This document shows, piece after piece, positions 1,407 through 46,729 of a stretch of 52,687 nt of DNA. Under the pieces are notes generated by a model, which was not told where the DNA came from, did no database searches, and was given only the letters and a program-made list of their open reading frames with translations. This stretch comes from Candidatus Dojkabacteria bacterium (lineage in GTDB: Bacteria; Patescibacteriota; Dojkabacteria; J137), in contig JAUZRK010000018.1 of the NCBI GenBank assembly GCA_030950485.1, forward strand, positions 1 through 52,687, read 5' to 3'. A program made the translations under genes and the position numbers. Within the stretch, counting starts at the first letter, position 1, and each line of letters starts with the position of its first letter.

Positions 1407-1874
1407 ATGGAAGAAAATAAGCAAAAGTTATATCAGTTCTTGAATAATCAAAATATATTTTCTATATCAACTGTAGATGAAAATAACTCTCCTTGGATTT
1501 GTACAGTTTACTGCGCAGTAGATGAGAACTTAAACCTATACTTTATGTCTCCCTTAGATACTGATCATTCAAAGCATATACTAAGAACTGGAGAGATAGC
1601 ATTCTCTACAGCATGGAGTAATCCTAATGATTTATCTAATAGAAAAGGGATACAAGGAAAAGCAAATGTTGAAATAATAGAAGAAATCAATGATTCATTA
1701 GAAGGATATAGTTTGATTTACAAGAAATTCTCTAACTGGGAAGGTTAAATTACTGTTGAAAGATTAAAACAAGAAAGCTCTGAATCCAAACTTCATAAAA
1801 TAACTCCAAGTTATATTAAGTTTTGGAATGATGAATTATTTGGGGAAGAAGGGACTATGGAATTTAAATTTTAG
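1407..1874 (+). CDS. PNPOx/general-stress-26-like FMN-binding split-barrel protein, interrupted by an in-frame TAA at 1746-1748
   Basis: IFSISTVDENNSPWICTVYCAVDENLNLYFMSPLDTDHSKHI matches the PNPOx-like pattern. After the TAA the same frame stays open for 41 codons (ITVERLKQESSESKLHKITPSYIKFWNDELFGEEGTMEFKF) to the TAG at 1872-1874, which looks like the normal C-terminal strands of the fold. Confidence 0.6.
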
Positions 1875-2137
1875 CCGATTATCTTTCTTACAAAGTTACC
1901 GAATTTGGATATTAAACCTGTTTGACTTCTCTTAATAGATTCAAGATCAACTGATAAAACATTAATTTTTTCTGTAGCTTCTTCTAGCTCAATCACTAAA
2001 CTATCTTTCTGAGTATTCAATTCTTTTACCTGCTCTTCTAAACTAATGTTTAAAGACTTTAGTCTATTTACATCATTTAAAAGCATTTGATTTTGTTGTT
2101 TAAGTGACTCTATTTTTGTATTAAAATCTTCACTCAT
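1871..2137 (-). CDS. Small coiled-coil protein, function unknown
   Basis: 88 aa with a heptad-like Leu/Glu/Lys/Gln-rich sequence (LKQQNQMLLNDVNRLKSLNISLEEQVKELNTQKDSL) and no TM segment. Confidence 0.5.
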   Translation of the reverse strand: MSEDFNTKIESLKQQNQMLLNDVNRLKSLNISLEEQVKELNTQKDSLVIELEEATEKINVLSVDLESIKRSQTGLISKFGNFVRKIIG

Positions 2138-2254
2138 AGTATTAGATTAGTTTAAGTTTTCTAATAATGTTTTTATATCAACTACACGTAGACACGATTT
2201 TACATCAATTTTATTGTATAGCCTAATTTCATTTTTATCATTAACCCAAGCTAA

Positions 2255-2397
2255 GTGAAGTGTCTTGAAATGATCTCCGGTGTTATCTCTGAATCACGCT
2301 TTGCTGTTCAGAGATTCAGAGCTTTGTTGACTGTGCCCGCCTCTCGATACAATTTACTCCCTATAGGTCGTAAATCACTCGAGACTGCACGGAGTGT
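2255..2397. other. GC-enriched structured non-coding segment adjoining repeat copy C
   Basis: Hairpin ctctgaatc(2287-2295)/gattcagag(2313-2321), with an alternative pairing tctctgaa/ttcagaga. Nested pairing gtgc..tctcga...tcgaga..gcac spans about 2333-2392. The 63-aa ORF called here runs through repeat sequence and has no coding character. Confidence 0.4.
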
Positions 2398-2518
2398 TAA
2401 AACATCACAGCGTAGTGGTCGTCAGTCATGCGACCACGGGTGCTGAACCACGTGTGCAGGTATTGTATTTTAGAACAACCGGGACGCATACTGCGTCCCT
2501 ACGCGGTGGTGTTTAATC
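2398..2518 (+). repeat. GC-rich structured intergenic repeat (family 1), copy C, full length
   Basis: Closing stem aaacatcacagcgtag (5') pairs with ctacgcggtggtgttt (3'). Internal hairpins are gtggtcg/cgaccac and gggacgca/tgcgtccc. Confidence 0.8.
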
Positions 2519-2551
2519 ATTATGCTACATGCTTGAACCAACTATTTGAAA

Positions 2552-4999
2552 TTAAATTTGGTGTGATTTATTATAGAAGAATTTGATAGTTTCAATTGTT
2601 ACAAGTCCTACTAAGCTTGAAATCGCAATTATTATTACATCATTACTTTCAAGTGGCGTTGTACTTAAAATTCTATTAAATAAGCCTGTATAAATAGCTA
2701 GAAATATTGTAATAAAGCTAACGATAGCAGATAGGTTAAGATATTTATTATTAAAAATATTCTCTTTCCAGATATTTGAATCGATTGTTTTCCAAGAGAA
2801 GATAAATAATGTTGATGTGACAGAAATGAGTCCGAGCATTAAAGTCTGGGCTCTAACTAGGCTGTATCCATTATCTATTAAATAAGCAAAAATTATAAAG
2901 AATCCTACGTCCTTTATAAGTGAAACTGTAAGTAATATTTTAAATAGATTTCTGCCTAAAAATGAGCCAGTCGGTTTATTTTTCTTATCTAATAAATCAT
3001 GTTTAGATTTATCAAATCCAATTGCTATTCCTGGAAAAGAATCCTCTAGTAGGTTAATCCAAAGTAAATGTACCGGTAAAAGTGGAAGTGGGTATCCAAA
3101 TATTAAACTTAAAAAAATTATGACCGTTTCTGAAAGGCTATCTCCAAATAAAAGCATGCTTATCTTTCTTGAGTTTTTAAATATGTTTCTACCCTCCTCT
3201 ATTGCATCAACAATAGTTTGAAAATTTGAATCTAAAAGTACTATATCAGAAACCTCTTTAGATACGTCAGTAGCAGTATCTACACTTATTCCAATTTGTG
3301 CATTCTTTAGCGCCGGCGCGTCATTTACTCCATCCCCCATCATAGCAACAGAAAGCCCATCTCTTTTCAAACTGTTTACTATTCTTAATTTTTGATCAGG
3401 AGTTGTTCGATAAAATAATCTAACTCTTTTTATAACTTCGCTTAAATTTTTATCTGATTTTATTAATGCTAGTTCTTTCCCGGATATTATTTCATCTTCG
3501 TGAAGATCCAAGCCAACCTGATTTAAAACATGTAAAGTAGTTTCCTTTAGATCTCCTGTAATTACTTTTAAATCAATTCCTGAATTATCAATTAACGCTA
3601 ATGATTTCTTAGCAGATTCTCGAACTGGATCATCTATAAAAGCAAGTCCTATAAAATTTAGATCTTTAATATCTTTTCGACTAACAACTTTGGATGACTT
3701 CTCTTTATAAGCTAAGGCTATTATTCTCTTACCTAATAATGACTGCTCTTTTATTATTTCCCCCCACTTACTATCTGCATTAATAGATCTTTCTAATATA
3801 ATTTCAGCAGCTCCTACAACGTAAATATTATTTAAATCAGTTGTTGCAGTATATTTAACAGATGATGCGAAAGGGAATATCTGTTCTTTTTTATCTCTAA
3901 TACTATTCCATTTGTCCTCATTATTATCTTTAAGAAAGTACTCTTTTAATGCATTATCAACAAGATTTGATTCATTATTACAAAGAGCAATAATATTAAG
4001 GGCTATTTTATTATTATTAAAATCAGTATCTATAATTGACATTTTTCCATGTGTCAGTGTTCCTGTTTTATCTATACAGAGAACATCAACAGACCCAAGA
4101 GTCTCTGCTGCTGGAAGATTTTTTACAATTGCATTTTTTTTCATTATCCTATTCATTCCAAGCGCTAGAATCACAGTAAATGAGATTATTAATCCTTCAG
4201 GAATTGTGCTTACTCCAAGAGCTACAGAAGTTAAAAGTATTTCTTTAAACTCTAAACCTCTCACTATTCCTAATATTAATATTATTATTGTAACGACGGC
4301 TATTAATGCTGTTATGTAGCTAGTTATTTGAGCAAGCTTCTTTTTTGTAGGTGTTTCAGGATCTATATTTATATCTATCGACTCTGCAATTTTTCCAAAA
4401 ACAGTTCTCTCCCCAGTATCAATTATCTTTGCAAAACCAAGCCCGTTTGTTATAACAGTTCCCATTAATATCTTACTCTCATTGTTTACGTATCTTAAAT
4501 CATTAGGCTCTTCTCCTTTGTAATAATGTTTATTTACAGCTGCTGATTCGCCAGTTATTATTGCTTCATTAACTAAGAGTTCAGTTCCTTCTAAAATATA
4601 GCCATCTCCTGGAATTTTTAATCCAGGTTCTAATGGAATAATGTCTCCGGGAACTAGTTCCTCAGAATTTATTGATAGTTTAGTTCCCTCTCTTATTACT
4701 TTTACGTAATTGCCGATGTTTGATCTTAGTGCGCTAAGGGTATTCTCTGCTCTATACTCTTGAATAAATCCAAGCATTGTATTTATTAAGACAACAACTA
4801 ATATAAAAATTGCATCTCGAATTTCATCGACTGCAAGAGAAAGAATCGATGTGAAGACTAGGATGTATATAAGGGGGCTTTTGATTTGTTTTATAAATAC
4901 ATCAAACGCAGTAGTTTTATTTCGGGTAGTTAGGATATTTTTTCCGTAAATTTCTAGTCTCTTTTTTGCTTCTTCTAAGCTTAGTCCTTTGTATTTCAT
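2552..4999 (-). CDS. P-type cation-transporting ATPase (type II, Ca2+/Mg2+-like)
   Basis: Motifs TGES (ITGESAAV), PEGL (STIPEGLIIS), DKTGTLT, TGD (VITGDLKETT) and GDGVNDAPAL. The likely start is the ATG at 4999 (MKYKGLSLEEAKKRLEIYGKN). The ORF-track extension to 5134 runs through repeat copies D' and D. Confidence 0.9.
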   Translation of the reverse strand: MKYKGLSLEEAKKRLEIYGKNILTTRNKTTAFDVFIKQIKSPLIYILVFTSILSLAVDEIRDAIFILVVVLINTMLGFIQEYRAENTLSALRSNIGNYVKVIREGTKLSINSEELVPGDIIPLEPGLKIPGDGYILEGTELLVNEAIITGESAAVNKHYYKGEEPNDLRYVNNESKILMGTVITNGLGFAKIIDTGERTVFGKIAESIDINIDPETPTKKKLAQITSYITALIAVVTIIILILGIVRGLEFKEILLTSVALGVSTIPEGLIISFTVILALGMNRIMKKNAIVKNLPAAETLGSVDVLCIDKTGTLTHGKMSIIDTDFNNNKIALNIIALCNNESNLVDNALKEYFLKDNNEDKWNSIRDKKEQIFPFASSVKYTATTDLNNIYVVGAAEIILERSINADSKWGEIIKEQSLLGKRIIALAYKEKSSKVVSRKDIKDLNFIGLAFIDDPVRESAKKSLALIDNSGIDLKVITGDLKETTLHVLNQVGLDLHEDEIISGKELALIKSDKNLSEVIKRVRLFYRTTPDQKLRIVNSLKRDGLSVAMMGDGVNDAPALKNAQIGISVDTATDVSKEVSDIVLLDSNFQTIVDAIEEGRNIFKNSRKISMLLFGDSLSETVIIFLSLIFGYPLPLLPVHLLWINLLEDSFPGIAIGFDKSKHDLLDKKNKPTGSFLGRNLFKILLTVSLIKDVGFFIIFAYLIDNGYSLVRAQTLMLGLISVTSTLFIFSWKTIDSNIWKENIFNNKYLNLSAIVSFITIFLAIYTGLFNRILSTTPLESNDVIIIAISSLVGLVTIETIKFFYNKSHQI

Positions 5000-5042
5000 A
5001 TTTTTTATTATATAGAGATTTTTAGGGAGTGTCATCTTACAA

Positions 5043-5092
5043 GGTGACTGGATGTAAAGCAGAGTGTAAAGTTGTACAACCCTGCATCGGTG
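5043..5092 (+). repeat. Partial family-1 repeat (variant middle module), copy D'
   Basis: ggtgactggatgtaaagcagagtgtaaagttgtacaaccc is near-identical to the interior of copy E (9702-9738, gttgactggatgtaaagcagagtgtgaagttaaacaccc). Confidence 0.7.
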
Positions 5093-5103
5093 GTATATAA
5101 AAT

Positions 5104-5203
5104 CGCAGCGTAGAGGTCGCAGATCTGCGACCATGGGGCCTGGATAACAAGCACATGGTTTTAAGATTATACATCCAGGACGAATGTTGCACCCTACGCT
5201 GAG
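5104..5203 (+). repeat. GC-rich structured intergenic repeat (family 1), copy D (diverged)
   Basis: cagcgtagaggtcgcagatctgcgaccatgg ... cctggat/atccagg hairpin ... ccctacgctg. Same outer stem and first hairpin as copies C and E. Sits between the divergent ATPase and uvrB genes. Confidence 0.7.
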
Positions 5204-5243
5204 ATCTTTCGGGTTTTGGGAGAGAATGAGTTATAATCTATTT

Positions 5244-6479
5244 ATGGATTTTAAACTACACTCGAAATACAAACCTTCTGGAGATCAGCCGCAAGCAATT
5301 GATCTAATATCTAAAGGGATAGAAGCAGGTATTGAACATCAAACAGTCGTTGGAGCTACAGGAACTGGAAAAACTTTTACAGTCGCTAATATTATAGAGA
5401 AATTTAATAGACCGACAATAATAATCTCCCACAATAAAACTCTAGCAGCTCAACTTTTTTCTGAGTTTACTGAGTTCTTTCCAGAAAATGAAGTAGCTTA
5501 TTTTGTAAGTTATTACGATTACTATCAGCCTGAAGCTTACGTTCCCAGCAGAGACTTATATATTGAAAAAGATTCTGATATAAATGAAACAATAGAAAAA
5601 TATAGAAATACAGCAACCCAAGCGCTACTTTCTAGAAGAGATGTAATCATTGTAGCCTCTGTAAGTTGTATATACGGTCTTGGAAATCCAAGCGATTATA
5701 TTGAGCTTAGTTTAAAACTTAAAGTTGGAGATATTGTAAATAGAGATAAGCTTTCCCATAAGCTAATAGATATGCAATATGAACGAAGAATACATGATTT
5801 CCCAAATGGAAGTTATAGAGTTAGAGGAGAAATTATTGATATAAATTTAACTACTGCAAATGATGAAGCAGTAAGATTAGAATTTTTTGGCGAAGAAATT
5901 GAAGCGATAAAACTAATTAATCCAATTAGTGGGGAACTAATACAGCGTGTACCTGAAATATTGATTTTCCCAGCGAAACACTACGCTACTCCCCAGGAAA
6001 AATTAAAAGGAGCTATTGAGGAAATAAGAACTGATTTAGAAAAAGAAGTTAAAGCTTTTAGTGATAAAGGGCAAGATATGGAAGCCAATAGGCTTAGACA
6101 GAGGGTGAACTTTGATTTAGAAATGTTACAGGAAACTGGTTTTACAAAAGGTATTGAAAACTATTCAAGATATTTTGATAAAAGACCTCCAGGTTCATCA
6201 GGATCTTGTTTATTAGATTATTTTCCGGATGATTATCTAATGTTTATTGACGAGTCTCATATTACAGTTCCACAAGTTGGAGGTATGTATAGCGGAGATA
6301 GGGCTAGAAAGCAAAATCTTGTTGACTACGGTTTTCGATTAAAGGCAGCTATGGATAATAGACCTCTAAAGTTTGAAGAATTCCAAAAAAGAATTAATCA
6401 GGCAGTTTATTTGTCCGCAACTCCAAAAGAATACGAACTAGAAATTAGTAAGAAATCTACAAAAAAAGCACTCTCTTAG
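5244..6479 (+). pseudogene. uvrB: Excinuclease ABC subunit B, 3'-truncated (N-terminal two thirds only)
   Basis: KPSGDQPQAI, Walker A GATGTGKTF, YYDYYQPEAY, and DESH (FIDESHITVPQ) through LSATPKEYELE. It then ends at a TAG after about 411 aa from the 5244 start. Helicase domain 2 (motifs IV-VI) and the UvrC-binding C-terminus are absent. The next ORF is unrelated. Confidence 0.85.
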
Positions 6480-6508
6480 GAACAATTCTTTACGAAAAAA
6501 CAGATCTA

Positions 6509-7060
6509 ATGCTATTATTCAGAACAAATAATACGATAGATATGAGTCAAGTTGAGATATCAGAAATAGATTACGCAGGAGATTTTCTATCTGATACTTT
6601 AGTAAATCCAAGTTATGAAGCCTTGGCAGAGGTAGCTGAGATGGAGATAATGCCGGATGTAATAGTTGAGCGTGATGGTAATACAATTCCATTTGATACA
6701 CTAAAACAGATGGGAGTAATTGCATTAAGACAAGCAAAAGATCTAATATTGATTAGTGAACAGACTCAACACCTTTATACTTATAGGGGAGATACAGTAA
6801 AAGTCTTTAACACTAGCGATTCTGAAACACTTACAGCAATTGAAGATTGCCTTGATAACCCAGACTCCTGGAAAGTTTTTTTTAGAAGAACAAAAGAAGG
6901 AAAGTTAAATAGTATTGATTTTATTAGTGATAAAGAGCCATTAAGCATAAGGCTGTATTTACAATATCCACCTAAGAGCTCAAAATATAAAAGTAACGAT
7001 TATATTTATCTGATGCCTAGTTCGGTAAGTATTAAAATTTATGAAGAAAGAGAGGCTTAG
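6509..7060 (+). CDS. Hypothetical acidic protein occupying the position of the missing uvrB 3' part
   Basis: 183-aa ORF with ordinary coding composition and no motif I recognise. Followed by a strong hairpin terminator. Confidence 0.4.
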   Translation: MLLFRTNNTIDMSQVEISEIDYAGDFLSDTLVNPSYEALAEVAEMEIMPDVIVERDGNTIPFDTLKQMGVIALRQAKDLILISEQTQHLYTYRGDTVKVFNTSDSETLTAIEDCLDNPDSWKVFFRRTKEGKLNSIDFISDKEPLSIRLYLQYPPKSSKYKSNDYIYLMPSSVSIKIYEEREA

Positions 7061-7079
7061 TAATAAACTAAGCCTCTCT
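7049..7079. terminator. Bidirectional intrinsic terminator between convergent genes
   Basis: agagaggcttag / taataaa / ctaagcctctct: a perfect 12-bp stem with A/T-rich flanks on both sides. The 5' arm contains the TAG stop of 6509..7060. Confidence 0.75.
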
Positions 7080-7090
7080 TTATATTTTAA

Positions 7091-9010
7091 TTAAACCAAA
7101 ACTCCCTTAATTCTTCTCAATCCTGATCCAATATTCTCCTGTTTCTTTATCTTGAATTTCTTTCCGCCTTCTCCAATTACAGATGTATTATCAACATGTG
7201 GTCCTCCGCAGAACTCTTTAGAGAAAGCATCCTCAACAGAATCACCAATTACATAAACTGAAACAATATCAGGATATTTTTGACCAAATTCCATCTCTGC
7301 TCCTACTTTCTCAGCATCTGCTTTTGGCATTTCTACTCTTTCTACTTTTAATCCATCTTCTATTTTTTCATTTACAATTTTTTCTACTTCTTCAACTTGT
7401 TCAGGTGTTAACTTTGAATCGTAAGAAAAATCTATTCTTAGTCTTTCTCCAGTAATATTACTACCCCTTTGTTTAACATCTTCACCAAGAACCATCTGAA
7501 GAGCCTTTAATAATAGGTGATGAGTAGTATGCAGTTTTGTAGTTTCGTTTGAACTATCTGCTAATCCACCTTTGAATTTTCCCTCAGCGCCTGCTCTACT
7601 TGCAGCTTTGTGTTCTTCTTGTTTAAGATTAAATTCTTTAGTAATTTTTTCTACTTCAGATACTTCAGTGATTCCAAATTCTTCTAAAGACATTTCTAGA
7701 GGAAAACCGTAAGTTTCGTAGATAAAGAAAGCCGTTTCTCCATTTAATTTAAAATTAGAATCATTTTCAATCATCTTTTCTATTTCTTTTACACCCTTGT
7801 CTAAAGTTCTTCTAAACTTTATTTCTTCTTTTTCTATTTCATCGATAATAAATACTTCATTTTCTTTAAGATGAGGATACGATCCTTCCATCTTGCCAAT
7901 AACATCAATTGCTAAGTCCTTCGTGAAATTGTCTTCTATTCCAAGTTTCATTCCGTGTCTAATCATTCTTCTAATTAATCTCCTTAGAATATAACCCTGA
8001 TCTTTACCACTTGGAGCTACTCCATCAGCAAGAATAAAACTTGAAGATCTAGCATGCTCAGCTACAACTCTAAATGACTTTAGATTTTCATCTAAGACTT
8101 CTGGATTATATTTATTTCCAGATAGCATTTCTATTTTATTAAGAATAGGCTCGAACAAATCAGTTTCATAAATAGATCTTTTCCCTTGAGCTGCTGAAAT
8201 AATTCTATCTAAACCTCCTCCATAATCAATATTCTTTTGTTCCATTGGCACCCATTTACCATCATCAGTAAATTTATACTCCATAAATACATTATTACCA
8301 ACCTCAAGATATCTACCTGAATCATCATTAATATGTATAGCTTCATTAGTCTCATAAAGAATGCTTCCCATATCGTAGAATAACTCAGAGCTTGGACCTC
8401 CTAGTTCACCAGGTGTGTCTGGGCCTCTTTGCCACCAGTTATCACTCTTTCCATAAGGAAAGATTCTAAACTCCCAATCTTTTGTAGATGGTTCATCTCC
8501 TTGAGGTACATTTGTTAAATCATCAGAAAATTTAGCTGTTATTCCGTACTCTTTAAATGCTTTAACCCATAGTTCAATCGCTTCATCGTCTCTAGGTATT
8601 TCGTCATTACCTCCCCAAACTGAAACGTAAAGTCTATTAATATCTAATCCAAATTCCTCAACATATAATTTCAACATCCATGGAATTTGTTCTGCTTTTG
8701 TAAAATCACCTAAAGACCAGTTTCCAATCATTTCAAAAAGAACAAGATGGTTATAATCTCCAACTTCATCAATATCTATAGTTCTTATACATCTTTGAAC
8801 ATTAAATAAACGTGTACCTAATGGATGTGGTTCACCTCCTAAATAAGGAACTAATGGGAACATTCCTGAGTTTACAAAAAGTAATGTTGGATCATTTAAA
8901 GGCACTAATGATGCATTAGGAACTTGCTTTGCATTTCTTGGATCACTATTCCAATAATCAATAAATTTTTGACGAATTTGTTCTGAAGTATTTGTTTTTG
9001 AATTTATCAT
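7091..9010 (-). CDS. alaS: Alanine--tRNA ligase, short form without the C-Ala domain
   Basis: N-terminal class II core (FIDYWNS...LVPLNDPTLLFVNSGM...VQRCIRT). Editing-domain zinc motifs HTTHHLL and CGGPHV. 639 aa, ending shortly after the editing domain (GSGLRRIKGVLV). Confidence 0.92.
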   Translation of the reverse strand: MINSKTNTSEQIRQKFIDYWNSDPRNAKQVPNASLVPLNDPTLLFVNSGMFPLVPYLGGEPHPLGTRLFNVQRCIRTIDIDEVGDYNHLVLFEMIGNWSLGDFTKAEQIPWMLKLYVEEFGLDINRLYVSVWGGNDEIPRDDEAIELWVKAFKEYGITAKFSDDLTNVPQGDEPSTKDWEFRIFPYGKSDNWWQRGPDTPGELGGPSSELFYDMGSILYETNEAIHINDDSGRYLEVGNNVFMEYKFTDDGKWVPMEQKNIDYGGGLDRIISAAQGKRSIYETDLFEPILNKIEMLSGNKYNPEVLDENLKSFRVVAEHARSSSFILADGVAPSGKDQGYILRRLIRRMIRHGMKLGIEDNFTKDLAIDVIGKMEGSYPHLKENEVFIIDEIEKEEIKFRRTLDKGVKEIEKMIENDSNFKLNGETAFFIYETYGFPLEMSLEEFGITEVSEVEKITKEFNLKQEEHKAASRAGAEGKFKGGLADSSNETTKLHTTHHLLLKALQMVLGEDVKQRGSNITGERLRIDFSYDSKLTPEQVEEVEKIVNEKIEDGLKVERVEMPKADAEKVGAEMEFGQKYPDIVSVYVIGDSVEDAFSKEFCGGPHVDNTSVIGEGGKKFKIKKQENIGSGLRRIKGVLV

Positions 9011-9048
9011 TTGTAGTAGGTTTAAATATTTAGATTATTTATAATAGT

Positions 9049-9100
9049 TAGAGACTAGAGACTAGAGACTAGAGACTAGAGACTAGAGACTAGAGACTAG
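9049..9100. repeat. Heptanucleotide tandem repeat (tagagac) x7.4
   Basis: Seven perfect units starting at 9049, 9056 ... 9091, plus a partial unit. Lies between the alaS start codon and the four-helix-bundle gene remnant. Confidence 0.95.
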
Positions 9101-9320
9101 GAACTTGAGTTTTTTATTAAGCCTTTAATTAACTTATGGACTGAGATGGCTAAAGCATATGATTTTTTATAATCATCATCTGAAATATATTTTAAGTCTT
9201 TAGCTATGATCAATTGGTTTTTTATCTCACTTAACGATCCAGATGCTATATAGTAAAATCTAGTTTTTTCTTTATATGTAAATCTACCAAATCCTTCAGC
9301 AATATTTGATGTTACTAAAA
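9097..9320 (-). pseudogene. 5'-truncated four-helix-bundle protein gene (23S rRNA intervening-sequence protein family)
   Basis: The minus-strand frame reads LVTSNIAEGFGRFTYKEKTRFYYIASGSLSEIKNQLIIAKDLKYISDDDYKKSYALAISVHKLIKGLIKNSSS*. It carries the family hallmarks NIAEGxGR and IAxGSxxE. There is no start codon and the first 45 or so residues are missing. Confidence 0.75.
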
Positions 9321-9627
9321 GAAAAAGCCCATCCTCTAATCTCTCTTTATTAAAAGATCAAAGGACGGGCTTTGCCGTGTTACCACCTTAATTCCTATAT
9401 CTATTGCTAAATATAGCTTAGTTCCCAATTGTTTGGGTTCAATTTACAGTTTTCTTCTGTAGTGCTTAGTAAAATGTATTAATCTCGATGAGAAATTACA
9501 TTAGCTCACACTCAGCTCCAGAGTAGCAATATATTTTTAATTTAATGCTGTTTTACAACTTAAGCACAGCTCTCTTTATTAAATTACTAAAAATATATAT
9601 TCTCCTTCTTAGCTTTTTTTGAATTGT
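9321..9627 (-). promoter_or_regulatory. T-box riboswitch leader upstream of alaS
   Basis: On the minus strand, AATTAAGGTGGTAACACGG (plus 9375-9393) matches the T-box motif AAnnnGGGTGGTACCGCG. It overlaps the 5' arm of the terminator AAAGCCCGTCC(9363-9373)...GGATGGGCTTT(9324-9334), which is followed by TTCTTTT. An AGAGAG element lies near the 5' end. A candidate Ala specifier GCU-A is at 9502-9505. Confidence 0.8.
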
Positions 9628-9633
9628 AGGTTA

Positions 9634-9662
9634 ATTTTAGTGTATAACTGTAGATTCGTCAA
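9634..9662 (-). promoter_or_regulatory. Sigma-70-type promoter for the T-box/alaS transcript
   Basis: On the minus strand: TTGACG (9657-9662), a 17-nt spacer, then TAAAAT (9634-9639). Confidence 0.5.
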
Positions 9663-9667
9663 TTATT

Positions 9668-9778
9668 GTACAGCGTAGTGGTCGTCAGATATGCAACCAC
9701 GTTGACTGGATGTAAAGCAGAGTGTGAAGTTAAACACCCAGGACGCATGTCTGTATTGCTACGCGGTGATGTTTAGTC
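9668..9778 (+). repeat. GC-rich structured intergenic repeat (family 1), copy E
   Basis: cagcgtagtggtcgtcagatatgcaaccac ... caggacgcatgtctgtattgctacgcggtgatgtttagtc. Same outer stem and hairpins as copy C, with the D'-type middle module. Confidence 0.8.
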
Positions 9779-9780
9779 AA

Positions 9781-10473
9781 TTAAAACATTGACTGTACTC
9801 TACTTAAAAGACCTTTTCTTTTCTCATCAATTTCTCTATTTTCTGTTGTAAAATTGTGGATTATAAATGCAGCGATGATTGCAAAACCACACATTACTGA
9901 TGCTATAAAACTCCCTTTTGTTCCTAAGAAAAGAAGAACAAAAACTGACGTAGGAAAAAAAGATGCGTAAGCTAGCAACGTTCTATTTAACTCTTTCTTT
10001 TCTATTTCATCTGTACTTTTGAAAAATTTATATGCAACGATAACCATAGTAGCTGAAAGAGTTGCAGGATAATAATACATCCATGTCCTAAAGACAGTAC
10101 TATAAGAATCAGAATAACCAACTATTTTTGCAAAACAGTTTACTGTATCTGCAGCTGAGATTGAGTCAGGAATTAAAATGAATGCTGATGATAGGGCGAT
10201 CGCATAGATTCCTACAAATTTTGAAAGATAACTTCTCTTAGTAATGCTTTCAACAAGCCATAAACCTAAAGGAGGTAAAAGTGTTGTTGCAGCAAAAGCT
10301 ACTCTTAATGACCATAAGTTTTTTTCCGGATTTAAGAAAAAGATAAACTCGCTAAAAAGAAAAGAATTCCCGTAGCTGGTTTTTTATATCTAAGTCCTTT
10401 TGTCCAGATTTTATATGCGAGAAAATATTCTACTAATGCAGTTATTAATGATCTTAAAATTAGGATTTCCATA
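9781..10473 (-). pseudogene. Polytopic membrane protein gene split by a frameshift
   Basis: An ATG at 10473 opens MEILILRSLITALVEYFLAYKIWTKGLRYKKPATGILFFLASLSFS*. A second frame (..FFLNPEKNLWSLRVAFAATTLLPPLGLWLVES...TVFRTW) runs without a start codon straight into the 99-aa ORF 9781..10080. The switch lies near the A5/T5 run at 10337-10341. Confidence 0.65.
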
Positions 10474-10481
10474 GGTTGATA

Positions 10482-11105
10482 CTAATTATTCAATTTTTTA
10501 CGTTTATATGAATATACTCTATAACTTATGAAAAGTAATCCGATTATAAGAGTCAGTAGCATTACAACATTGCTATACTTATCTACAGTATCTATAAATC
10601 CTTTCCATTTATTACCTAATTTTGAAGTTACTCCTATTATAAAAGAAGTCCAAACAGCTGCTCCTAGAAAAGAATATAAACAAACAGCAAAGACATTTTT
10701 CTTTAATAAACCAGCAGGAATTGTTACTAGGCTTCTAACTCCTGGAATCATTTGTGAGAAAAAGATTACTACATTCCCATATTTTTTAACCCAAACTTCT
10801 CCCTTATCTAATTTTTCTTGAGTTACAAATAACCTATCTCCATATCTATTTATAAACGGTCTACCTCCAATTCTTGCAACTAAGTACATAAATAGAGTTC
10901 CAGCTGCATTTCCAAGACTTGCAGCAAGAACTGCTAGCCCAAAATTCATATTCCCTTGATAAACAAGTAATCCAATTGAACCTAATATTACTTCTGAAGG
11001 AATTGGTGGGAAAACTCCTGATTCTAAAAACATAATTAGAAACACTCCAAAATATCCAAGTGAATCAATAAGACCTAATAAATCATTAGCCAGACTAGAA
11101 AACAT
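10482..11105 (-). CDS. dedA: DedA/VTT-domain membrane protein
   Basis: 207 aa, multi-TM, with GVFPPIPSEVILGSIG and MIPGVRSLVTIPAGLL, which are typical DedA family motifs. Confidence 0.75.
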   Translation of the reverse strand: MFSSLANDLLGLIDSLGYFGVFLIMFLESGVFPPIPSEVILGSIGLLVYQGNMNFGLAVLAASLGNAAGTLFMYLVARIGGRPFINRYGDRLFVTQEKLDKGEVWVKKYGNVVIFFSQMIPGVRSLVTIPAGLLKKNVFAVCLYSFLGAAVWTSFIIGVTSKLGNKWKGFIDTVDKYSNVVMLLTLIIGLLFISYRVYSYKRKKLNN

Positions 11106-11107
11106 TT

Positions 11108-13696: not shown

Positions 13697-13758
13697 CTAT
13701 AAGTTAATTAGCATTTTATAATACCACTAGAATAGAATTTAATGAAGAATGGTAGAAC

Positions 13759-14574
13759 TTAGTCACCTCTGTTTTGCCAATTAGTATAATTATCCAGTGC
13801 AACCATAGCACAGCTTAATTCATCATCTCTAGTAACAGTTACATAGTCGATAGTTACATTAAGATCTGCCTGGTTACCAGTAACTACTGTATAAACAAGT
13901 TTAGGTCCAAATAAAGTCACATCAATTACGACATTAGCAGCTCCTTCAGCAGCTTCTTCTCCAAGATTTACAACAATTTTTTGACAACCTTCATTTGTGA
14001 TTGATTCTCCTGCAGTTTCTATAAGAAAGCTAGCAGCTCCGATAGGATCTTCTCTAATCTCATTTACTACGGACATTAATGAAGCCATAAACATTAAAGG
14101 AATTAAGCACGAAGCTACACTTAATCCTAATATTAATTTCTTTTGTTTAATCGCTATTTGAGCTGCAGTTATTGGTATTCTTAATTGAGGTATTGCTTTA
14201 AGGAAATTTAATATTTCGGGATGTTGCAATATTAGCTTTATAGCTTTTACTTTATTTATTGGATTCGAGCTTAAAAGTAGGGGTAGTGCTTCTGTTATAA
14301 CCTTTAGCTGAGAAGGGTCCATTTTTTCGACTCCTGCAGCTTTAAATCCTGCTTGTATTGCACTTTGGGGTATAACTCCACCTAGCTTACTACTTAATAC
14401 TTTAGATAGTTCGGCTGTTTGGTCTACTTCCTCTGAAGCTTGTGCCTGGCTAAGTGCTTGTACTAGCGCTCTGTTTGAATTTACCCAGTTAAAGTATTGC
14501 TGCTCTGGGGTAAGTCTTTGCACTCTTGTTCTTGGTGCTGGTTTTGCGTAATTTCTAGGTGCTGCTGCGTCCAT
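13759..14574 (-). CDS. Hypothetical protein with one central TM segment (last gene of the envelope block)
   Basis: 271 aa with an ATG start. Ala/Gln-rich N-terminus, hydrophobic segment LILGLSVASCLIPLMFMASLMSVV, and a C-terminal beta-rich region. No recognised motif. Confidence 0.5.
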   Translation of the reverse strand: MDAAAPRNYAKPAPRTRVQRLTPEQQYFNWVNSNRALVQALSQAQASEEVDQTAELSKVLSSKLGGVIPQSAIQAGFKAAGVEKMDPSQLKVITEALPLLLSSNPINKVKAIKLILQHPEILNFLKAIPQLRIPITAAQIAIKQKKLILGLSVASCLIPLMFMASLMSVVNEIREDPIGAASFLIETAGESITNEGCQKIVVNLGEEAAEGAANVVIDVTLFGPKLVYTVVTGNQADLNVTIDYVTVTRDDELSCAMVALDNYTNWQNRGD

Positions 14575-14613
14575 ATTTACATGATAATACTTTGGGAGAT
14601 GGAAGACAATTTA

Positions 14614-14829
14614 TTAGATGATTCCTAGCTTTTTCTTTATTTTTTCGATAGTATCATTTATCGCTCTAGTATCTCTATTAATATCTTGTCTATTAAATGT
14701 CTTAGAGATTTGTTGTAACCTATCTAGGGCACGCCTTAGAATATTTCTATTTCCGCTATCTACTTCAACCATTGACGTTATTTGTTCTGCTTGGTTGACT
14801 AGAAAATACTGATTGCTCCTGCATTTCAT
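14614..14829 (-). CDS. Arg/Asn/Asp-rich segment, probably the displaced C-terminus of the giant charged protein
   Basis: 71 aa with the same composition as 15344..18130. It overlaps, in a shifted frame, the end of the start-less open frame 14768-15115. Ends in a tandem TAA TAA. Confidence 0.4.
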   Translation of the reverse strand: MKCRSNQYFLVNQAEQITSMVEVDSGNRNILRRALDRLQQISKTFNRQDINRDTRAINDTIEKIKKKLGII

Positions 14830-15115
14830 TTAAAGCTAATTCATGGTCTAAAGGCTCCCCTAATAATGGAGCTTCTTGACCTTGTAAATTTAATCTCCTT
14901 CTATTTTCAGAGAGAATATCGTCTTGTAGTTGTCGTAATCTTTTCTCACCTAATCTTGTGCCTCGAGAATCGTTGTCTCTAGTATTTCTGACTGAATTTA
15001 TTCTGTCCCTAATATCTCCTAATTGACGTATTGTGGCTCCTCGAATAATATCATTTCTTAACTGATTTAATTCATTAATATATCTTTCATTTTGATTAGC
15101 TCTGTCTTCAATATT

Positions 15116-15337
15116 TTAAAGCTGTTCTGCACCAAATCTATCACGCTCTAGCCCGTATTGTTCTCTCATATTATTTCTAGCTTCTCTTAACTCTCTCAAT
15201 CTCGGATCGTCAGCTCTGATTTGTAGATCTATGCTAGTATCAGCATTCTCTCCATTAACTAAATTTTCGCCATTACCTAATTGTCTTGCGTAAAGAGTAT
15301 CTGCTTCTGCTTTCACTTCTTCTATTTCTTGAAACAT
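15116..15337 (-). CDS. Charged segment in frame with the giant protein (between two in-frame TAA codons)
   Basis: The ATG lies 2 codons after the TAA at 15344-15346, in the same frame. The sequence (..DDPRLRELREARNNMREQYGLERDRFGAEQL) resembles the upstream protein. Confidence 0.45.
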   Translation of the reverse strand: MFQEIEEVKAEADTLYARQLGNGENLVNGENADTSIDLQIRADDPRLRELREARNNMREQYGLERDRFGAEQL

Positions 15338-36159: not shown

Positions 36160-36768
36160 ATGAATTATATGAAAGAAATCGAAATTTGGTCAGAAATAGA
36201 GGCTGACATTTATCATACTAAAATTAAAGAATTTAATGAGAAGTTTGGTCAGCCAAAAACAAAGAGGAGACTATCTTTTAGATTCGGTTTTAATAGTGAT
36301 TACGTGACCAATACGAGAATTCGAATCACGAATGGTTATGCTGAGATTATGCACAAGACTGGAAGTAATCAAAAGACATTTGTACGAAATGAAACTGAAT
36401 ATGCTATTGATAATGAGCCAAATAGCATTTTAAAAATGGTGAATTTTTTTCGAAATATTCTTAAAGCTTCGGATGAAACACATTTTTATTTAATTCAATT
36501 CGAAAACTCAATTTGGGATATAGGTGATTATGAAATTAAACTTACCCATTAAATAGGAAATCAAAATATCTATAGTTTTGAAATTGAGCTACAAACTGAA
36601 GAGATGAACGAGGCTAACTTAGAGTCTTTAGCCTTAGATCTAGGACTTCCTATTAAAGATGAGATAAGAGACAATGCTTTCTGGAAGAAATTTAATGAAA
36701 GGGTTAATATTGATGTTAAAGAATGGAGTGATGAAAAAATATTAGAGATCTTATCAAAATATCTCTAA
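36160..36768 (+). CDS. CYTH (triphosphate tunnel metalloenzyme) domain protein interrupted by an in-frame TAA at 36550-36552
   Basis: N-terminal KEIEIWSEIE (ExExK-like), NTRIRITNGYAEIMHKTGS, RNETEYAID. After ..DYEIKLTH-TAA the same frame continues for 71 codons: IGNQNIYSFEIELQTEE... This supplies the C-terminal EIE strand of the CYTH tunnel. Confidence 0.6.
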
Positions 36769-36771
36769 TAC

Positions 36772-38632: not shown

Positions 38633-39403
38633 ATGATAGATGGAGCAAAAGAAAACACTTCCACAGAGGAAAGATACTTTGCGACAAGTTCTAATACTGA
38701 AAATTTAGTAGGTTCACTTAGAGAAGCTGGTTAGGAAGTTCGAAATGAAAGTGATATTTTTACAATTTACTTAGTAAATTCAGAAGGTAAATGGAGTCGA
38801 AGTACTAGGGTACGAGGAACGGAAATTCATACTATAGGCGATTTACGAAATGCAGTTGCTCAGTCAACTCTAATGTCTAAAAATATGAATACAAGATCAA
38901 AGGTGCAAAAAGATGTCAGAATATGTGACTTTTTTAATGGAGATTTAGATGAGGAAACAATATATTTTATTAGAGAAAATCTATTTGTACTTAAATTAAT
39001 AGATATAGAAGGAATAGCATTATCTGATATTCAGTTTGCTGTTTCTTCTAATAGGCAATATTTACTTCCTAAAGAAGCTATTACAGATGGTAACGATCTA
39101 CCAAGAATCACCATTGATACTTCTTATACTCTATCAGTCTATAAAGAAGCAAAGCTAGTTGCTGAAATACCATTTAACTGGGTTAAGATTGAACTAAAAT
39201 ATCAAGACGATGATTCTGCAAGTGATTTAACTTTCTCTGATAAAAGAGTAGAAAAAGTACGAGAACTTTTTTCCGGTAATAATATTAGATTAATTGATGC
39301 TGATTTTATTGCTTGGCAAATTGAGTTAATATTGAATGAGCAATTAGAAAAAATAAATATTGATCTTGCTTTGGAAGATAAATATAGCATTCAAGAATTA
39401 TAA
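38633..39403 (+). CDS. Hypothetical protein; the annotated ORF 38873..39403 is preceded by 80 in-frame codons containing one TAG
   Basis: The ATG at 38633 opens MIDGAKENTSTEERYFATSSNTENLVGSLREAG, then a TAG (38732-38734). EVRNESDIFTIYLVNSEGKWS... then runs uninterrupted into the ATG at 38873. The stop overlaps the next start (TAATG). Confidence 0.4.
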
Positions 39404-39999
39404 TGATAGAAATAGAAAGAAGATACTTACTAAAAAAAGATGCTTTAGATTTACTTTTTAAAGAGAATGATCTAACAGGTAACCAATCAGATAGCTCTAT
39501 CAATATATATTTACTTGATAACCCTGAAGTACCATTACAAATTAGGACTCGAGGCGGGGAATGGAAATTTGCTTTGAAAAAAAAAGTAAATAATGACACT
39601 TACATAGAATCACAAGTAAAAATTGAAGAAAAAGATCTTTTAGAATTTCTACGAATAGCCTTCATATTAGAGTATAAGAAGTGCATGGTGTTAAGAAAAA
39701 ATAGAAGAACTTTTCATATTGGTGATTTAAAGTTAGATATAGATCTTTATATTGATATTGAACTATATGTATTAGAAATAGAATATACTGGAAAATCTGA
39801 GGTGCCTGAAGTAACTGAAAAAATAATTAATGGATTTGAAAAAAATAATAAATTATCTTCATATAGGGCGGAAGATTTACAGAAATTAAAAGAGTCTATA
39901 TTTGAAAATAAACTAATTAAAAGGTTTGAACTTCGAAATTTTAATGACATTGAAGAATTATACAAATTTGCTAATAGCTATAAAACTACCACTGAATAA
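39403..39999 (+). CDS. CYTH domain protein (second copy)
   Basis: Starts MIEIERRYLLKK, the hallmark EIERKFL of CYTH enzymes. Later LQIRTRGGEWKFALKKK and YVLEIEY strands. Confidence 0.65.
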   Translation: MIEIERRYLLKKDALDLLFKENDLTGNQSDSSINIYLLDNPEVPLQIRTRGGEWKFALKKKVNNDTYIESQVKIEEKDLLEFLRIAFILEYKKCMVLRKNRRTFHIGDLKLDIDLYIDIELYVLEIEYTGKSEVPEVTEKIINGFEKNNKLSSYRAEDLQKLKESIFENKLIKRFELRNFNDIEELYKFANSYKTTTE

Positions 40000-40834: not shown

Positions 40835-41293
40835 ATGGCTAAATATAAAATCACAAAACAGAAACTCAAGGAATTGGAAAACGAGTTAGAAGAGCGTGTT
40901 AATAATCGTAGTGAGATTAAGAGTGAGCTAATGTATGCTGCAGAACAGGGAGATTTCGTAAGAGAGAATTTCCCTTATGATGCTGCTAAAGAAAAGTATG
41001 GTTTTAATGAAAATCGAATTGAAAGGATTAAGAATATACTAAAGGATTATGAAATTTAAAATGATCAAAGAAGTAATGATGTCGTAAGAATTGGGAGTAA
41101 GGTATTAGTACTGATTAATGATAAAAAGAGAGAGTTCCAATTGGTTTCTGATATTGAGGTTAATTCGAGGGAGGGGAAGATTTCGGTTAATTCTCCAACT
41201 GGTTTATCTTTGATTAAAAAACAAGTTAAAGATGACGGGTGGTTTGAGGTGAATGATAAGAAAATTGGATTTAGGGTTTTGGAGATAGGGTGA
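40835..41293 (+). CDS. greA: Transcription elongation factor GreA with an in-frame TAA (41057-41059) at the interdomain linker
   Basis: The N-terminal coiled coil (LKELENELEERV...AAEQGDFVRENFPYDAAKEKYGFNENRIERIKNIL) ends YEI-TAA. The same frame continues NDQRSNDVVRIGSKVLVLINDKKREFQLVSDIEVNSREGKISVNSPTGLSLIKKQVKDDGWFEV..EIG-TGA, a typical GreA C-terminal domain. With the TAA counted as one residue, total length is 152 aa. Confidence 0.85.
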
Positions 41294-42309: not shown

Positions 42310-43337
42310 TCATTTCCTAGTCTTCTCCTCAGCCTCTAAAACAATTCTAAACGCATCTTCTAAAGAAGTAGCTGTAAAAGAACAACCAGCAGCATATAAA
42401 TGGCCACCACCACCAGGAAAAGACATAGCAATATCTCTAACTTCTCTTTTCCCAAATTGCGATCTAAAACTTGCACCCCATTGATTTTCAACTCCACATT
42501 CCTTTTTTACTAAAAATCCCCACTCTACTCCTTCTATATTTCTAAGATAAAGATCACTAAAATAATGTTTCGCAAGACCTGCATCTGCTCTATCCTCTTC
42601 AGGTATATCAAGTAGATAAGTATAAGCGAAATTATCTTTATATCTTGTATTTTCAATAAGCTTAATTAAATACTCATTAGCTTTCTTTGTAAGTTTATAA
42701 CTATGTTTCAAAATAGATTTTGGATCAACTTTAGCGTAATCGTAAAGATCTACAAATATTTCATAAGTCTGACTTTTTGGTTTTTCAAACTGGAAATTGT
42801 TAGTGTCTGAAATAACACCTATTTGAATTAGTTCTGCTATATATTTCGAGACTATTAAATCCTCTTTAAAATACCTCTAAAGCCTGTATATATTTCTTCA
42901 GTTGCAGACGCAAGAGCTCTATCTATATGTATGTCTACTCTATGTAATAAATCATTTTGATGATGATCTATTACAAGAATATTGTTATCTTCAATCATTT
43001 TAAAATCAGCATTATCAAAACACCTGCCTAAATCTGAAGCATCGACAATTACTAATGTATCGTACTTATCTAAGAATATCTCATCAAAGCTTTCAATATA
43101 ATTACTTAGAATTTTCTTTAGATCTCTAATACTAGAGATTGGCGTTGAAGGTTTTCCTTCAAGTCGAATATCTATATCTTGAATATTATTATAATGAATA
43201 CTTGCTAGCTCTTTAAATAATAGACAGCTTGCTGCTGCGTCAATATCCGCTCCTTGATGTGAGATTACTAAAATATTAGTAGCTTTCTTTAATGATGAAT
43301 CTAATTTTTCTAATGCAACTTCTATATTATCTTGCAT
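42310..43337 (-). pseudogene. Second NrnA-like DHH/DHHA1 phosphoesterase, split by a 1-nt frameshift
   Basis: ORF 42855..43337 carries DIDAAAS and VIDHHQN and ends ..FRGILKRI*. The frame of ORF 42310..42711 (GGGGH) is open upstream to 42870 and reads ..EDLIVSKYIAELIQIGVISDTNN.., colinear with the intact paralogue (FREVLNKDLVITELQAKLIQIGIISDSAG). The switch lies at the T3A4 run 42865-42871. Confidence 0.75.
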
Positions 43338-44376: not shown

Positions 44377-44448
44377 CTGTAGAAATTATAGCAGTATCTG
44401 GCAGGAAGCTGAAAAGTTTGCTATGATCCGATTGATTAAAAATAAAAC

Positions 44449-44898
44449 ATGTCAAATATATTAGTAGCACATAATAATCCCCAAGTTGCAACGGCTATAG
44501 CACTAGCTTGTAAGGAAGTTGGAACAGTTAAAGTAGGAAATAATTTGGTTTCTGATGAAGTCTTTATACTTGATCATAGGAGGATGTGGCAGGGACACTT
44601 AGAATGCAGACGTATAGATGATGAAGAGGCTAAATTATCTAGTTTAGTAAATATCACACCTGAATTGGATTTACTTATTATTGATCATAACATTATACAA
44701 GTTCTAAACACTAAGGAAAGTCTTCAGAAACTCCTAGAAGCAAATGGCTTTAAAGGAGGCATCATACCGAAAGATTTAGAAAGGGTAGTAGATAATTCAG
44801 ATGATATTATAGAAATACATCATACTAGATTGGGTAAAATGATTGATGATTCACTTTCTCCTAATGATAATGAGCTAACAGAAATAAGTACAGATTAG
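44449..44898 (+). CDS. Stand-alone receiver-like (CheY-fold) protein, atypical
   Basis: NILVAHNN start strand and a LDLLIIDHNI central strand with Asp. No output domain. Weak similarity only. Confidence 0.35.
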   Translation: MSNILVAHNNPQVATAIALACKEVGTVKVGNNLVSDEVFILDHRRMWQGHLECRRIDDEEAKLSSLVNITPELDLLIIDHNIIQVLNTKESLQKLLEANGFKGGIIPKDLERVVDNSDDIIEIHHTRLGKMIDDSLSPNDNELTEISTD

Positions 44899-44953
44899 TT
44901 AGTATCTAAAAGCTTAGTCTGTTAAAATTTTTGTAATAATATACTAAACATAT

Positions 44954-45409
44954 ATGTCAAAAATTCTAATAGTAAACGACACTACGGCTACAATAGATGC
45001 ACTTAAAAATGGACTTATTAAGATGGATATTGCCCCTACTGACGTACTAATAATGAATACTCGAAATTGTGTAGAAATCTCAGAAGATACTGGTGAATTA
45101 GTTTTAAGTGCGGTTGATGCGAACGGAGTAATTGCTGATCTTACATCTATAGATGTGGTTATTACTAATCATTTTCAACATGGACTAGACATTACAGGTA
45201 GAGAAATAGTAAGTTATATAAAAATGGAAAGTCCTGATATTAAAGTAGTTGGTATTAGTAACTTTAGAGAGCTCCAAGAAGGAGAGATTCCTTATACTGA
45301 CCACTATTACGGTTCAGAAAGTAAATCCAGAATAATTTCTAAAAAAGCAGATGATACATCTGAACTAGTAGGTCAGAATCATTCGAAACCTCAAATTTTC
45401 CAAACATAG
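44954..45409 (+). CDS. Stand-alone pseudo-receiver (phospho-acceptor Asp replaced by Asn)
   Basis: KILIVNDT (DD pocket reads ND), IDVVITNHFQHGLDITGREIVSYIK (acceptor position reads N), KVVGISN. No output domain. Confidence 0.4.
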   Translation: MSKILIVNDTTATIDALKNGLIKMDIAPTDVLIMNTRNCVEISEDTGELVLSAVDANGVIADLTSIDVVITNHFQHGLDITGREIVSYIKMESPDIKVVGISNFRELQEGEIPYTDHYYGSESKSRIISKKADDTSELVGQNHSKPQIFQT

Positions 45410-45577
45410 ATCTAAATAGCGGAGCTGGCCTAACATTAGGTATTGACTCTTCTGAACTTAGTGATTATCAAATGACTATGTCTAAGATAAATAAATTCCT
45501 AATTAATTTAGGTGTAAGAAAAGATTTAAGATCTAATTCTGATATTTTTGTAGGATCTGCTGCTTAATTTATATATA

Positions 45578-46729
45578 CTACTGCTCTAGCCAATGTGTAT
45601 ATCCTTTATCGAACATATGCTGTTGTAGTTTTAGTTTTATTTCTTTACTACCTCCTTTGAAGATATCTAATAGTAGTTTTGGTAAAACTCTAGCAATCTC
45701 TATTTCTCCATTAGCAACAGTACCATCTAAACTAGTGACGGCTAAATAAGTTAAGAATTGTGCCAATACTCTCTTTAAATTTGTTAATTCTAAAACCTCT
45801 TCCCAAGTAAAATCTTTATCCGTATCAGATTCAACGAACTCCTCATCTACCTAATTCCTAGGAATTAGGATTTTCTCAAGTGCATCAATAGCAACATAGG
45901 CTGCAGGCTGATTTTGTAACGATGATAGAAATTCAACTCCAATTCTTTGTTTCGCTTTAAACTTATCTGGAAGTAAACCATTAAAGTCGATATCTACTCG
46001 TCTGATCATGTTATCAATAACAATCTGAGCTTCATCATTAGATAAGTTTCCATTAGTTCTTATAAGAGTATAAAATGTTGCAGTATTATCTTCGGTTCCC
46101 CCAGATCTGGACTCTTTACTAGTTTTTAATATACCAAAGACAATTCCGTTACCTCTAACCCTTCTTTTACTATCAACTAATTGATTATAAAGATCTTCCA
46201 TGAAGGTAAGTATTGAGACTACATCATTATCGGGTTTAAAAATCTCTTTTTCAGAAAGAGGTAAGTATGTTCTAATTCTAAATCCTTGCTTTTGGTACTG
46301 CATGTCAGTTATCGTATTTGCTTGGATTCCAATCTTTAAAGTTTGGAAAAATTCTGGTATTGTTTTAAAGTCGTTATAAAGAAAATTAGCCGCTTCTGCA
46401 ATTTCTCTAATCCCCATTTTGTGATTTTTAAAGACTGGACTAACTTCGTCTACAAACCATTCACTTGTATCAATAACTACATCTTTAATTTCTATTTGTT
46501 TATTAAGCAACCGTAACTCGGAATAGGTACATTTCAATCTACCTAACCTTAGTCTAAGATCAGCAGGAGACATATTTTGCATTTCAGCTGCTGCTACTAT
46601 TGCTCCTCGAAGTGCAGAGCCTTGAATCTCAATAACTAGTTCATTCCCTTCATGATCAAACTTGTAAAAGTCATCATTAAAAAAGTTATCGAATTCTGAA
46701 TTTTTAGCTTCTAAATAACGCTCGGACAT
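45578..46729 (-). CDS. Hypothetical protein; the 292-aa ORF continues in frame past a TAG (45851-45853) for 90 more codons
   Basis: After ..ILIPRN-TAG the same frame reads VDEEFVESDTDKDFTWEEVLELTNLKRV and runs into ORF 45578..45766 (62 aa) without interruption. No recognised motif. Confidence 0.5.

Follow-up and report, generated by a model that had tools for sequence, protein, structure and literature searches.

Pseudogenes that arise by nonsense mutation are well known in genome-reducing bacteria such as Mycobacterium leprae, Salmonella Typhi and Sodalis. The genomes of the Candidate Phyla Radiation (CPR, Patescibacteria), Dojkabacteria (WS6) among them, are usually compact and hold few pseudogenes. 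In established genetics an ochre suppressor transfer RNA (tRNA; anticodon UUA) reads both UAA and UAG, and TAA is used by neither the selenocysteine nor the pyrrolysine system. Here we describe a stretch of 52,687 bp (31.7% G+C), referred to throughout as the window, from a Candidatus Dojkabacteria bacterium (NCBI assembly GCA_030950485.1, contig JAUZRK010000018.1). Nine stop codons stand in it with the same frame open behind them, six TAA, two TAG and one TGA. We consider it probable, though well short of certain, that at least six or seven of these stops arose recently by nonsense mutation, in genes that a Dojkabacteria-like CPR bacterium with the standard code can dispense with.

The nine codons are distributed as follows, each given with the number of codons that stay open behind it in the same frame:

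1407-1874, plus strand: PNPOx-like gene; TAA 1746-1748 is codon 114 of 155, with 41 open codons behind it
14765-18130, minus strand: gene of a giant charged protein (928 aa); TAA 15344-15346 followed by 75 open codons, and TAA 15116-15118 followed by 116
23366-24587, minus strand: gene of a pilin-like secreted/membrane protein; TAA 23867-23869 followed by 166 open codons, plus a 1-nt frameshift in the signal peptide, at a T5 run near 24531-24535
29957-31195, plus strand: gene without detectable homologues (359 aa); TGA 31034-31036 and a 52-codon extension that reaches the convergent nrdR
36160-36768, plus strand: divergent, candidate CYTH-like gene; TAA 36550-36552 followed by 71 open codons
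38633-39403, plus strand: gene without detectable homologues; TAG 38732-38734, 33 codons past a candidate ATG, followed by 222 open codons, with the next ATG at 38873
40835-41293, plus strand: greA; TAA 41057-41059 in the linker that joins the N-terminal coiled coil to the C-terminal domain, followed by 77 open codons
45578-46729, minus strand: gene without detectable homologues (292 aa); TAG 45851-45853 followed by 90 open codons

Direct reading of the sequence placed every one of these codons at the position and on the strand given by the initial annotation, in which they had been singled out. All nine frames do stay open, over 41 to 222 codons rather than the 41 to 166 that the annotation gave.

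From the base composition of the window, a random frame is calculated to meet a stop about every 13 codons, and the median same-frame extension behind the window's other genes (those of at least 100 codons) is 10 codons. Long same-frame extensions are found elsewhere in the window in three instances, all of them normal adjacent genes with an ATG of their own directly after the stop. What sets the nine stops apart from these is the combination of tails that lack a start and codon usage of the coding type. In eight of the nine cases (all except 15344, with an ATG at +3) the first 15 codons of the tail contain no ATG, GTG or TTG, and the codon scores of all nine tails lie between 0.29 and 0.70 bits per codon, as compared with 0.54 +/- 0.17 for real genes and -1.17 for off-frame sequence. 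A uniform filter for such events retained six in the 52.7 kb of the window, against nine in 434 kb of relatives (26 loci). Two of the nine events in relatives belong to a chain of in-frame stops in a single locus; this chain, the only one inspected, has a translation unlike coding sequence and was rejected as a comparable case. About six or seven of the nine stops in the window are true gene interruptions, and TGA 31034 and TAG 38732 are the weakest of the nine cases.

For three of the interrupted genes (those of GreA, the PNPOx-like protein and the pilin-like protein) homologues are continuous across the stop. An exhaustive HMMER search with the pilin-like protein recovered 3,611 homologues. 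Among the best 150 of these most are 250-770 aa long, and nearly all carry the last ~110 aa as a conserved C-terminal domain; three homologue alignments run across stop 23867. Taken alone, this C-terminal domain lacks both a signal peptide and a start in the window, and it is joined to the N-terminal part in relatives, where the gene is a single intact open reading frame (ORF) in 25 of 25 related loci, nearly all with a signal-peptide-like hydrophobic N-terminus. The stop is missing from all 25, so the lesion is specific to the lineage of the window.

The same gene carries another lesion. The signal peptide encoded in the window (MKSKIIFLITIVITNSLF..., from the ATG at 24587) and the gene body do not share a frame, and removal of one T from the T5 run near 24531-24535 yields MKSKIIFLITIVITNSLFSYLVDA-QTNSF, a canonical signal peptide together with its cleavage site. 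This frameshift is common to the window and to the second assembly described below. Because it stands in the same gene as stop 23867, readthrough alone could not rescue the pilin-like gene.

Loci with the pilin-like domain are mostly labelled Candidatus Dojkabacteria, and several of them share local gene content with the window. Here the gene forms part of a minus-strand cluster (18973-25535) that encodes a 960-aa protein, a 391-aa protein, the pilin-like protein and a 282-aa membrane protein, and that adjoins uvrC and mraY. Homologues of the cluster proteins, none of which has a Pfam match, recur near the pilin-like gene in Dojkabacteria loci. The C-terminal domain is very widespread (3,611 matches) and the N-terminal parts are highly variable.

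The Pfam domain PNPOx_N crosses stop 1746, covering residues 6-141 and profile positions 3-120 of 120, and the first start codon in the tail comes only 37 codons past the stop. In greA the two Pfam domains, GreA_GreB_N (residues 5-74) and the C-terminal GreA_GreB domain (residues 80-151), flank stop 41057, which sits in the variable inter-domain linker. The GreA readthrough product aligns with E. coli GreA (1grj) over residues 12-149 (E 6e-12). The earlier suggestion that the sequence downstream of the stop is the remainder of a conserved domain in the PNPOx-like, GreA and CYTH cases stands for the first two, by Pfam, and is unconfirmed for the third, Pfam finding no CYTH domain in the gene at 36550. 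A scan of the genome collection with a GreA pattern gave no match, and a word-indexed homologue search with GreA came back empty, self-match included. A second GreA-related gene is present in the same genome outside the window (locus L003, 4513-4746); it encodes a stand-alone 77-aa protein with a weak match to the GreA_GreB C-terminal domain and without the N-terminal coiled coil.

The sequence of the window is also found in another NCBI record, GCA_030949735.1, where it is split over contigs JAUZSD010000032 and JAUZSD010000017, and we compared window stretches 30839-51059, 13456-28081 and 1-11734 with this record. The contig ends of the record do not fit the window, which must therefore be a separate assembly, made from the same organism or one nearly identical to it. 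About 35 insertion or deletion (indel) events, nearly all of them changes in the length of short homopolymer runs, and eight substitutions distinguish the two. Six of the eight substitutions fall in one poor stretch (10325-10926), and well-aligned sequence thus shows two substitutions in ~35 kb. All nine stops, that of greA included, are present in the record, no difference between the assemblies touches any of them, and the region of the PNPOx-like gene is identical in both. Since the stops are identical in an assembly that differs elsewhere, random consensus error, one of the three explanations put forward in the initial annotation, is excluded; the only form of error left to weigh is a systematic one shared by both assemblies. 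In these genes a random substitution creates a stop in only 5.4% of cases, and nine stops would need ~165 unselected substitution errors in ~46 kb.

Where indel differences fall inside ORFs, the window is nearly always in frame and the record broken, as in the genes of the Mur ligase, the GreA C-domain, the CYTH protein, the 391-aa protein and a VTT-domain (DedA-like) membrane protein. The gene calls of the public record are unreliable, many ORFs being broken there that are kept intact in the window. The reverse situation was met in the following gene:

42310-43337, minus strand: DHH/DHHA1 gene; the A-run at 42868 is A4 in the window, where the gene is frameshifted, and A5 in the record, where it is intact (342 aa)

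At least one homopolymer-length discrepancy thus remains in the window itself. A membrane-protein gene near 10335-10383 switches frame within the stretch of greatest disagreement between the assemblies. Out of 14 indel differences, three are located downstream of stops 36550, 38732 and 41057, in tails that account for 5.8% of the sequence (estimated P ~0.05, suggestive only). Three differences have the look of true variation between strains: a synonymous single-nucleotide polymorphism at 17165, an in-frame indel of 3 bp at 35590, and one unit more or less of a 7-bp tandem repeat. This suggests that independent data lie behind the two assemblies. The repeated 7-mer, TAGAGAC, occurs in about nine copies at 9035-9100 in the window, just downstream of alaS, and in one copy more in the record. 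The window's own version of the CYTH gene was not in the databases looked up, and no paper mentioning the assembly accession was found in the literature.

All three stop codons terminate conserved genes in this DNA. At or near the ends of the respective Pfam profiles, TAA ends AlaS, MraY, NrdR, LepB and HhH-GPD, TAG ends Def, DUF2797 and an FAD/NAD oxidoreductase, and TGA ends WecG and DHH/DHHA1. The conserved genes of the window (AlaS, two P-type ATPases, UvrB, UvrC, MraY, Mur ligase, Def, LepB, NrdR, DHH and others) can be aligned over almost their whole length with relatives or Pfam profiles and contain no internal stop in ~9,300 codons. Taken together, the use of all three codons as terminators and the lack of internal stops in conserved genes mean that no codon has been reassigned: the host uses the standard code, in agreement with the earlier view that there is no simple global reassignment. 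No tRNA gene was found in the 52.7-kb window or in four extra loci, ~9 kb of flank of the window included, and no Rfam family scored above threshold anywhere in the window, which leaves the stops with no recoding signal of the SECIS or PYLIS type. The stops are of three kinds, six of the nine being TAA, whereas programmed recoding combines a signal with a single codon type. Among 48 terminators TAA is the most frequent, with 27; usage has not moved towards TGA, and back-up stops show no clear excess. T follows about half of the true terminators and none of the nine stops, and A follows five of the six internal TAAs; these next bases fit the composition of first codon positions (A 36%, T 20%). 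Stop reassignments reported for the phylum are limited to UGA-to-Gly in the Gracilibacteria lineage (PMC13293708).

For the remaining interrupted genes the evidence comes from composition, motifs and codon usage. Both tails of the giant charged protein keep its Glu/Arg/Asn-rich, Lys-poor composition (Arg 13-15%, as against 5% in other proteins), with codon scores of 0.55 after 15344 and 0.40 after 15116. A word-indexed search for homologues of this protein gave no matches, and its self-match was not returned either. As it has an ATG at +3, the piece after 15344 may represent a small gene in its own right, and at the end of the protein a frameshift into ORF 14617-14829 is possible. The gene interrupted at 36550 showed no CYTH domain in Pfam even at E<=10 and no NCBIfam or PDB match, and the Pfam-positive CYTH gene is its intact neighbour at 39403-39999. 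In a pairwise alignment with that gene the motifs EIE, IR and IGD are kept, Y.(F/L)EIE falls after the stop, and the stop itself aligns with a Tyr; the tail has a codon score of 0.41. The AlphaFold model of the product (mean predicted local distance difference test, pLDDT, 37.6) was too poor for a fold search. A CYTH label is therefore plausible at the level of these motifs but unproven, and composition or motifs would make the giant protein gene and this one candidate interruptions.

The tail behind TAG 45851 has a codon score of 0.53, and its first start codon is at +29. At 38732, the weakest of the TAA and TAG cases, only 40 codons are open upstream, and the frame scores as coding both before (0.64) and after (0.46) the TAG. 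The 31034 extension scores 0.31, near the lower edge for coding; no terminator-like site was found there, and an extension of this kind is estimated to occur by chance with P ~0.02 per gene, among ~48 genes. It lacks homology support and may be a chance extension behind a true gene end. At these last two positions the stops and open frames are present as the initial annotation had reported, and the cases are weaker than it made them, by the absent homology and the short upstream ORF. The genes at 45851, 38732 and 31034 have no homologues in Pfam or NCBIfam, and a homologue search with a chimera of seven readthrough products came back empty, self-match included. PDB searches with the genes that lack homologues gave no match.

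Among the explanations raised at the outset, gene decay is the one we favour, and we infer that the bases are truly present in the DNA and that readthrough does not rescue the products. Single-base substitutions would recently have created premature stops in dispensable or fast-evolving genes: greA, the PNPOx-like gene, one copy of the multi-member pilin-like family, the giant charged protein and genes without detectable homologues. The interrupted genes would be young pseudogenes or severe hypomorphs, their tails still open since too little time has passed for second lesions, and TGA 31034, possibly also TAG 38732, would be ordinary gene boundaries. The substitution calculation gives an estimated stop-creation rate of ~0.16 per codon per unit divergence; nine stops in ~15,500 codons then correspond to ~0.4-0.7% unselected divergence, at which less than one secondary stop is predicted in the 910 codons of the tails. 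Clean tails consequently do not require that translation has continued. The intact pilin-like gene of relatives and the frameshift in the window's copy both speak for decay, as does a gene remnant elsewhere in the window:

9100-9357, minus strand: 5'-truncated remnant of a 23S_rRNA_IVP (four-helix-bundle) gene; it covers Pfam profile positions 42-105 of 106 only, has no start codon and has several in-frame stops upstream

This remnant is an independent sign of decay in the window, and together with the signal-peptide frameshift it points to real loss of genes; the possible frameshift at the end of the giant protein would be a further lesion.

Several observations weigh on the other side of this reading. 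The closest relatives found have only ~60-68% protein identity. Both assemblies contain homopolymer errors of the long-read type, and the same chemistry could mean that they share systematic errors. Nonsense lesions number nine, compared with one or two frameshifts common to both assemblies and about two confined to the window, an imbalance with an estimated P of ~0.03-0.2 if the two kinds were equally frequent. The bases after the stops form a weak termination context, as readthrough would also predict, and inactivation of ~15% of the genes is unusual for a streamlined CPR genome. A single metagenome scan with the Mur ligase returned only relatives at 24-30%, and no orthologues of the interrupted genes other than the pilin-like one were recovered in the collections searched.

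If both assemblies derive from noisy long reads, the same base-calling artefacts, at modified bases or at T-run/A-run junctions, could have turned AAA, CAA or GAA into TAA in each of them. The homopolymer changes that make up almost all window-record differences are a signature of long-read error, the DHH frameshift of the window is not in the record, and the stretch 10325-10926 is messy. Four of the six TAAs stand at a T-run/A-run junction, and three have TAAAAT in common. Moreover, when four window proteins were looked up, GCA_030949735.1 was the only hit among public assemblies, Logan short-read assemblies included, which suggests that there are no short-read data. The stops are substitutions, however, and in published error profiles long-read consensus errors are mainly indels; the substitution differences between the assemblies, two in ~35 kb, stand against the ~165 errors needed. 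Reading frames in the window are intact almost everywhere, no motif is common to the nine sites, the counts of the alternative 7-mers are normal, and there is no context-specific depletion that would suggest a deterministic miscall. The lesions common to both assemblies all lie outside the ~9,300 codons of core conserved genes, unlike the record's private indel errors, which strike conserved genes freely. Homopolymer-length spectra did not separate the window from its short-read relatives, and a leave-one-out test of private changes in UvrC and MraY was confounded, the window being the most divergent sequence. We regard shared systematic error as unlikely, yet not negligible.

Translation through the stops would be a matter of leaky termination or of an ochre-type suppressor tRNA (anticodon UUA) that partly decodes TAA and TAG in weak contexts, so that the genes stay partly functional. 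Eight of the nine stops belong to the pair read by one such suppressor, none is followed by T, the 910 tail codons hold no secondary lesion, and nonsense lesions exceed frameshifts. But a lack of second lesions is expected anyway of young stops, and the next-base pattern is that of first codon positions; no tRNA gene turned up in the window or the extra loci, terminator usage is unshifted, the pilin-like gene would need its frameshift repaired too and lacks the stop in relatives, and the reassignments reported for the phylum concern UGA. Readthrough is thus not needed, and as a functional explanation, which the initial annotation had also entertained, it strikes us as quite improbable. The same slim chance is all that we would give to a Dojkabacteria lineage with leaky termination or a low-efficiency ochre-type suppressor, in which TAA and TAG in non-T contexts would be tolerated and accumulate, frameshifts would be purged, and stop codons would be used ambiguously according to context. 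As for ordinary gene boundaries or naturally split genes, the tails would then be separate small genes in the same frame, with non-canonical starts or reinitiation, mainly at 31034 and 38732. Roughly a third of neighbouring genes on the same strand are in the same frame, the three other instances of same-frame neighbours seen here are normal adjacent genes that each have an ATG, the ATG behind 15344 is preceded by AAGGAG, and neither the 31034 extension nor the short ORF upstream of 38732 has homology support. Such an account of the nine stops is very doubtful, given that the PNPOx domain crosses its stop, that the two domains of GreA flank theirs, that the pilin-like C-terminal domain has neither signal peptide nor start and is fused to the N-terminal part in relatives, and that eight of the nine tails have no start codon within 15 codons.

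Three further features of the window stand apart from the interrupted genes. In the region 5184-7060 the UvrB-like ORF ends after the UvrB_3rd domain, at 431 aa, without the helicase C-terminal and UVR domains; the small ORF behind it is unrelated and read in another frame. We rejected it as a frameshifted gene, because a relative at 68% identity (a metagenome-assembled genome, MAG, labelled Saccharibacteria) has the same truncation, which is therefore a trait of the lineage rather than a recent lesion. Between a small ORF and a P-type ATPase gene, a ~300-nt stretch (2250-2550) is non-coding by appearance and has a G+C content of 45-49%, compared with 32% overall. It folds better than shuffled sequences on both strands (z -3.1 and -3.8) and gave no Rfam match even at E<=1 and no tRNA or tmRNA; the folding makes it possibly an undescribed or very divergent structured RNA. 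Finally, a 221-aa protein (48604-49269, minus strand) contains an IS200-like Y1 transposase domain (Pfam Y1_Tnp, E 1.2e-5).

What the nine stops mean depends on which explanation holds. If they are real, about one gene in seven of this stretch has just been inactivated, greA and a surface pilin-like protein included, and the window shows gene loss in progress in a lineage of episymbionts; split ORFs would also inflate gene counts and metabolic reconstructions made from this genome. Should they be artefacts, they call for caution with long-read MAGs, two public versions of one genome differing here at dozens of homopolymer positions. Only readthrough, if true, would change what is known of bacterial translation.

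In comparison with described systems the phenomenon is of a known kind. With the pseudogenes of M. leprae, S. Typhi and Sodalis it shares single premature stops, continuous homologues, lineage-specific lesions, dispensable genes, and frameshifted and truncated genes alongside; it differs from them in its CPR/Dojkabacteria host, in that nonsense lesions outnumber frameshifts, and in that nearly all lesions are single and young. Nanopore-type artefacts of long-read MAGs resemble it in that the two assemblies differ by ORF-breaking homopolymer indels, but the nine stops are substitutions, identical in both assemblies and far in excess of the observed rate of substitution discrepancies. Ochre and amber suppressor tRNAs and leaky termination (E. 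coli sup strains, Qbeta A1 readthrough, and among eukaryotes Condylostoma and Blastocrithidia) would explain TAA and TAG occurring together and the absence of T after the stops; here, in contrast, no suppressor tRNA is seen in 52.7 kb plus ~9 kb of flank, terminator usage is unadapted, and one gene needs its frameshift repaired. Stop reassignment, whether UGA=Gly in Gracilibacteria and Absconditabacteria (code 25), UGA=Trp (code 4) or the TAG and TGA recoding of phages, likewise places in-frame stops in genes, in the case of code 25 in those of a CPR bacterium. In this organism, unlike in those systems, all three stop codons still end conserved genes, the conserved genes are free of internal stops, and the interruptions amount to nine stops of three kinds in ~15,500 codons.

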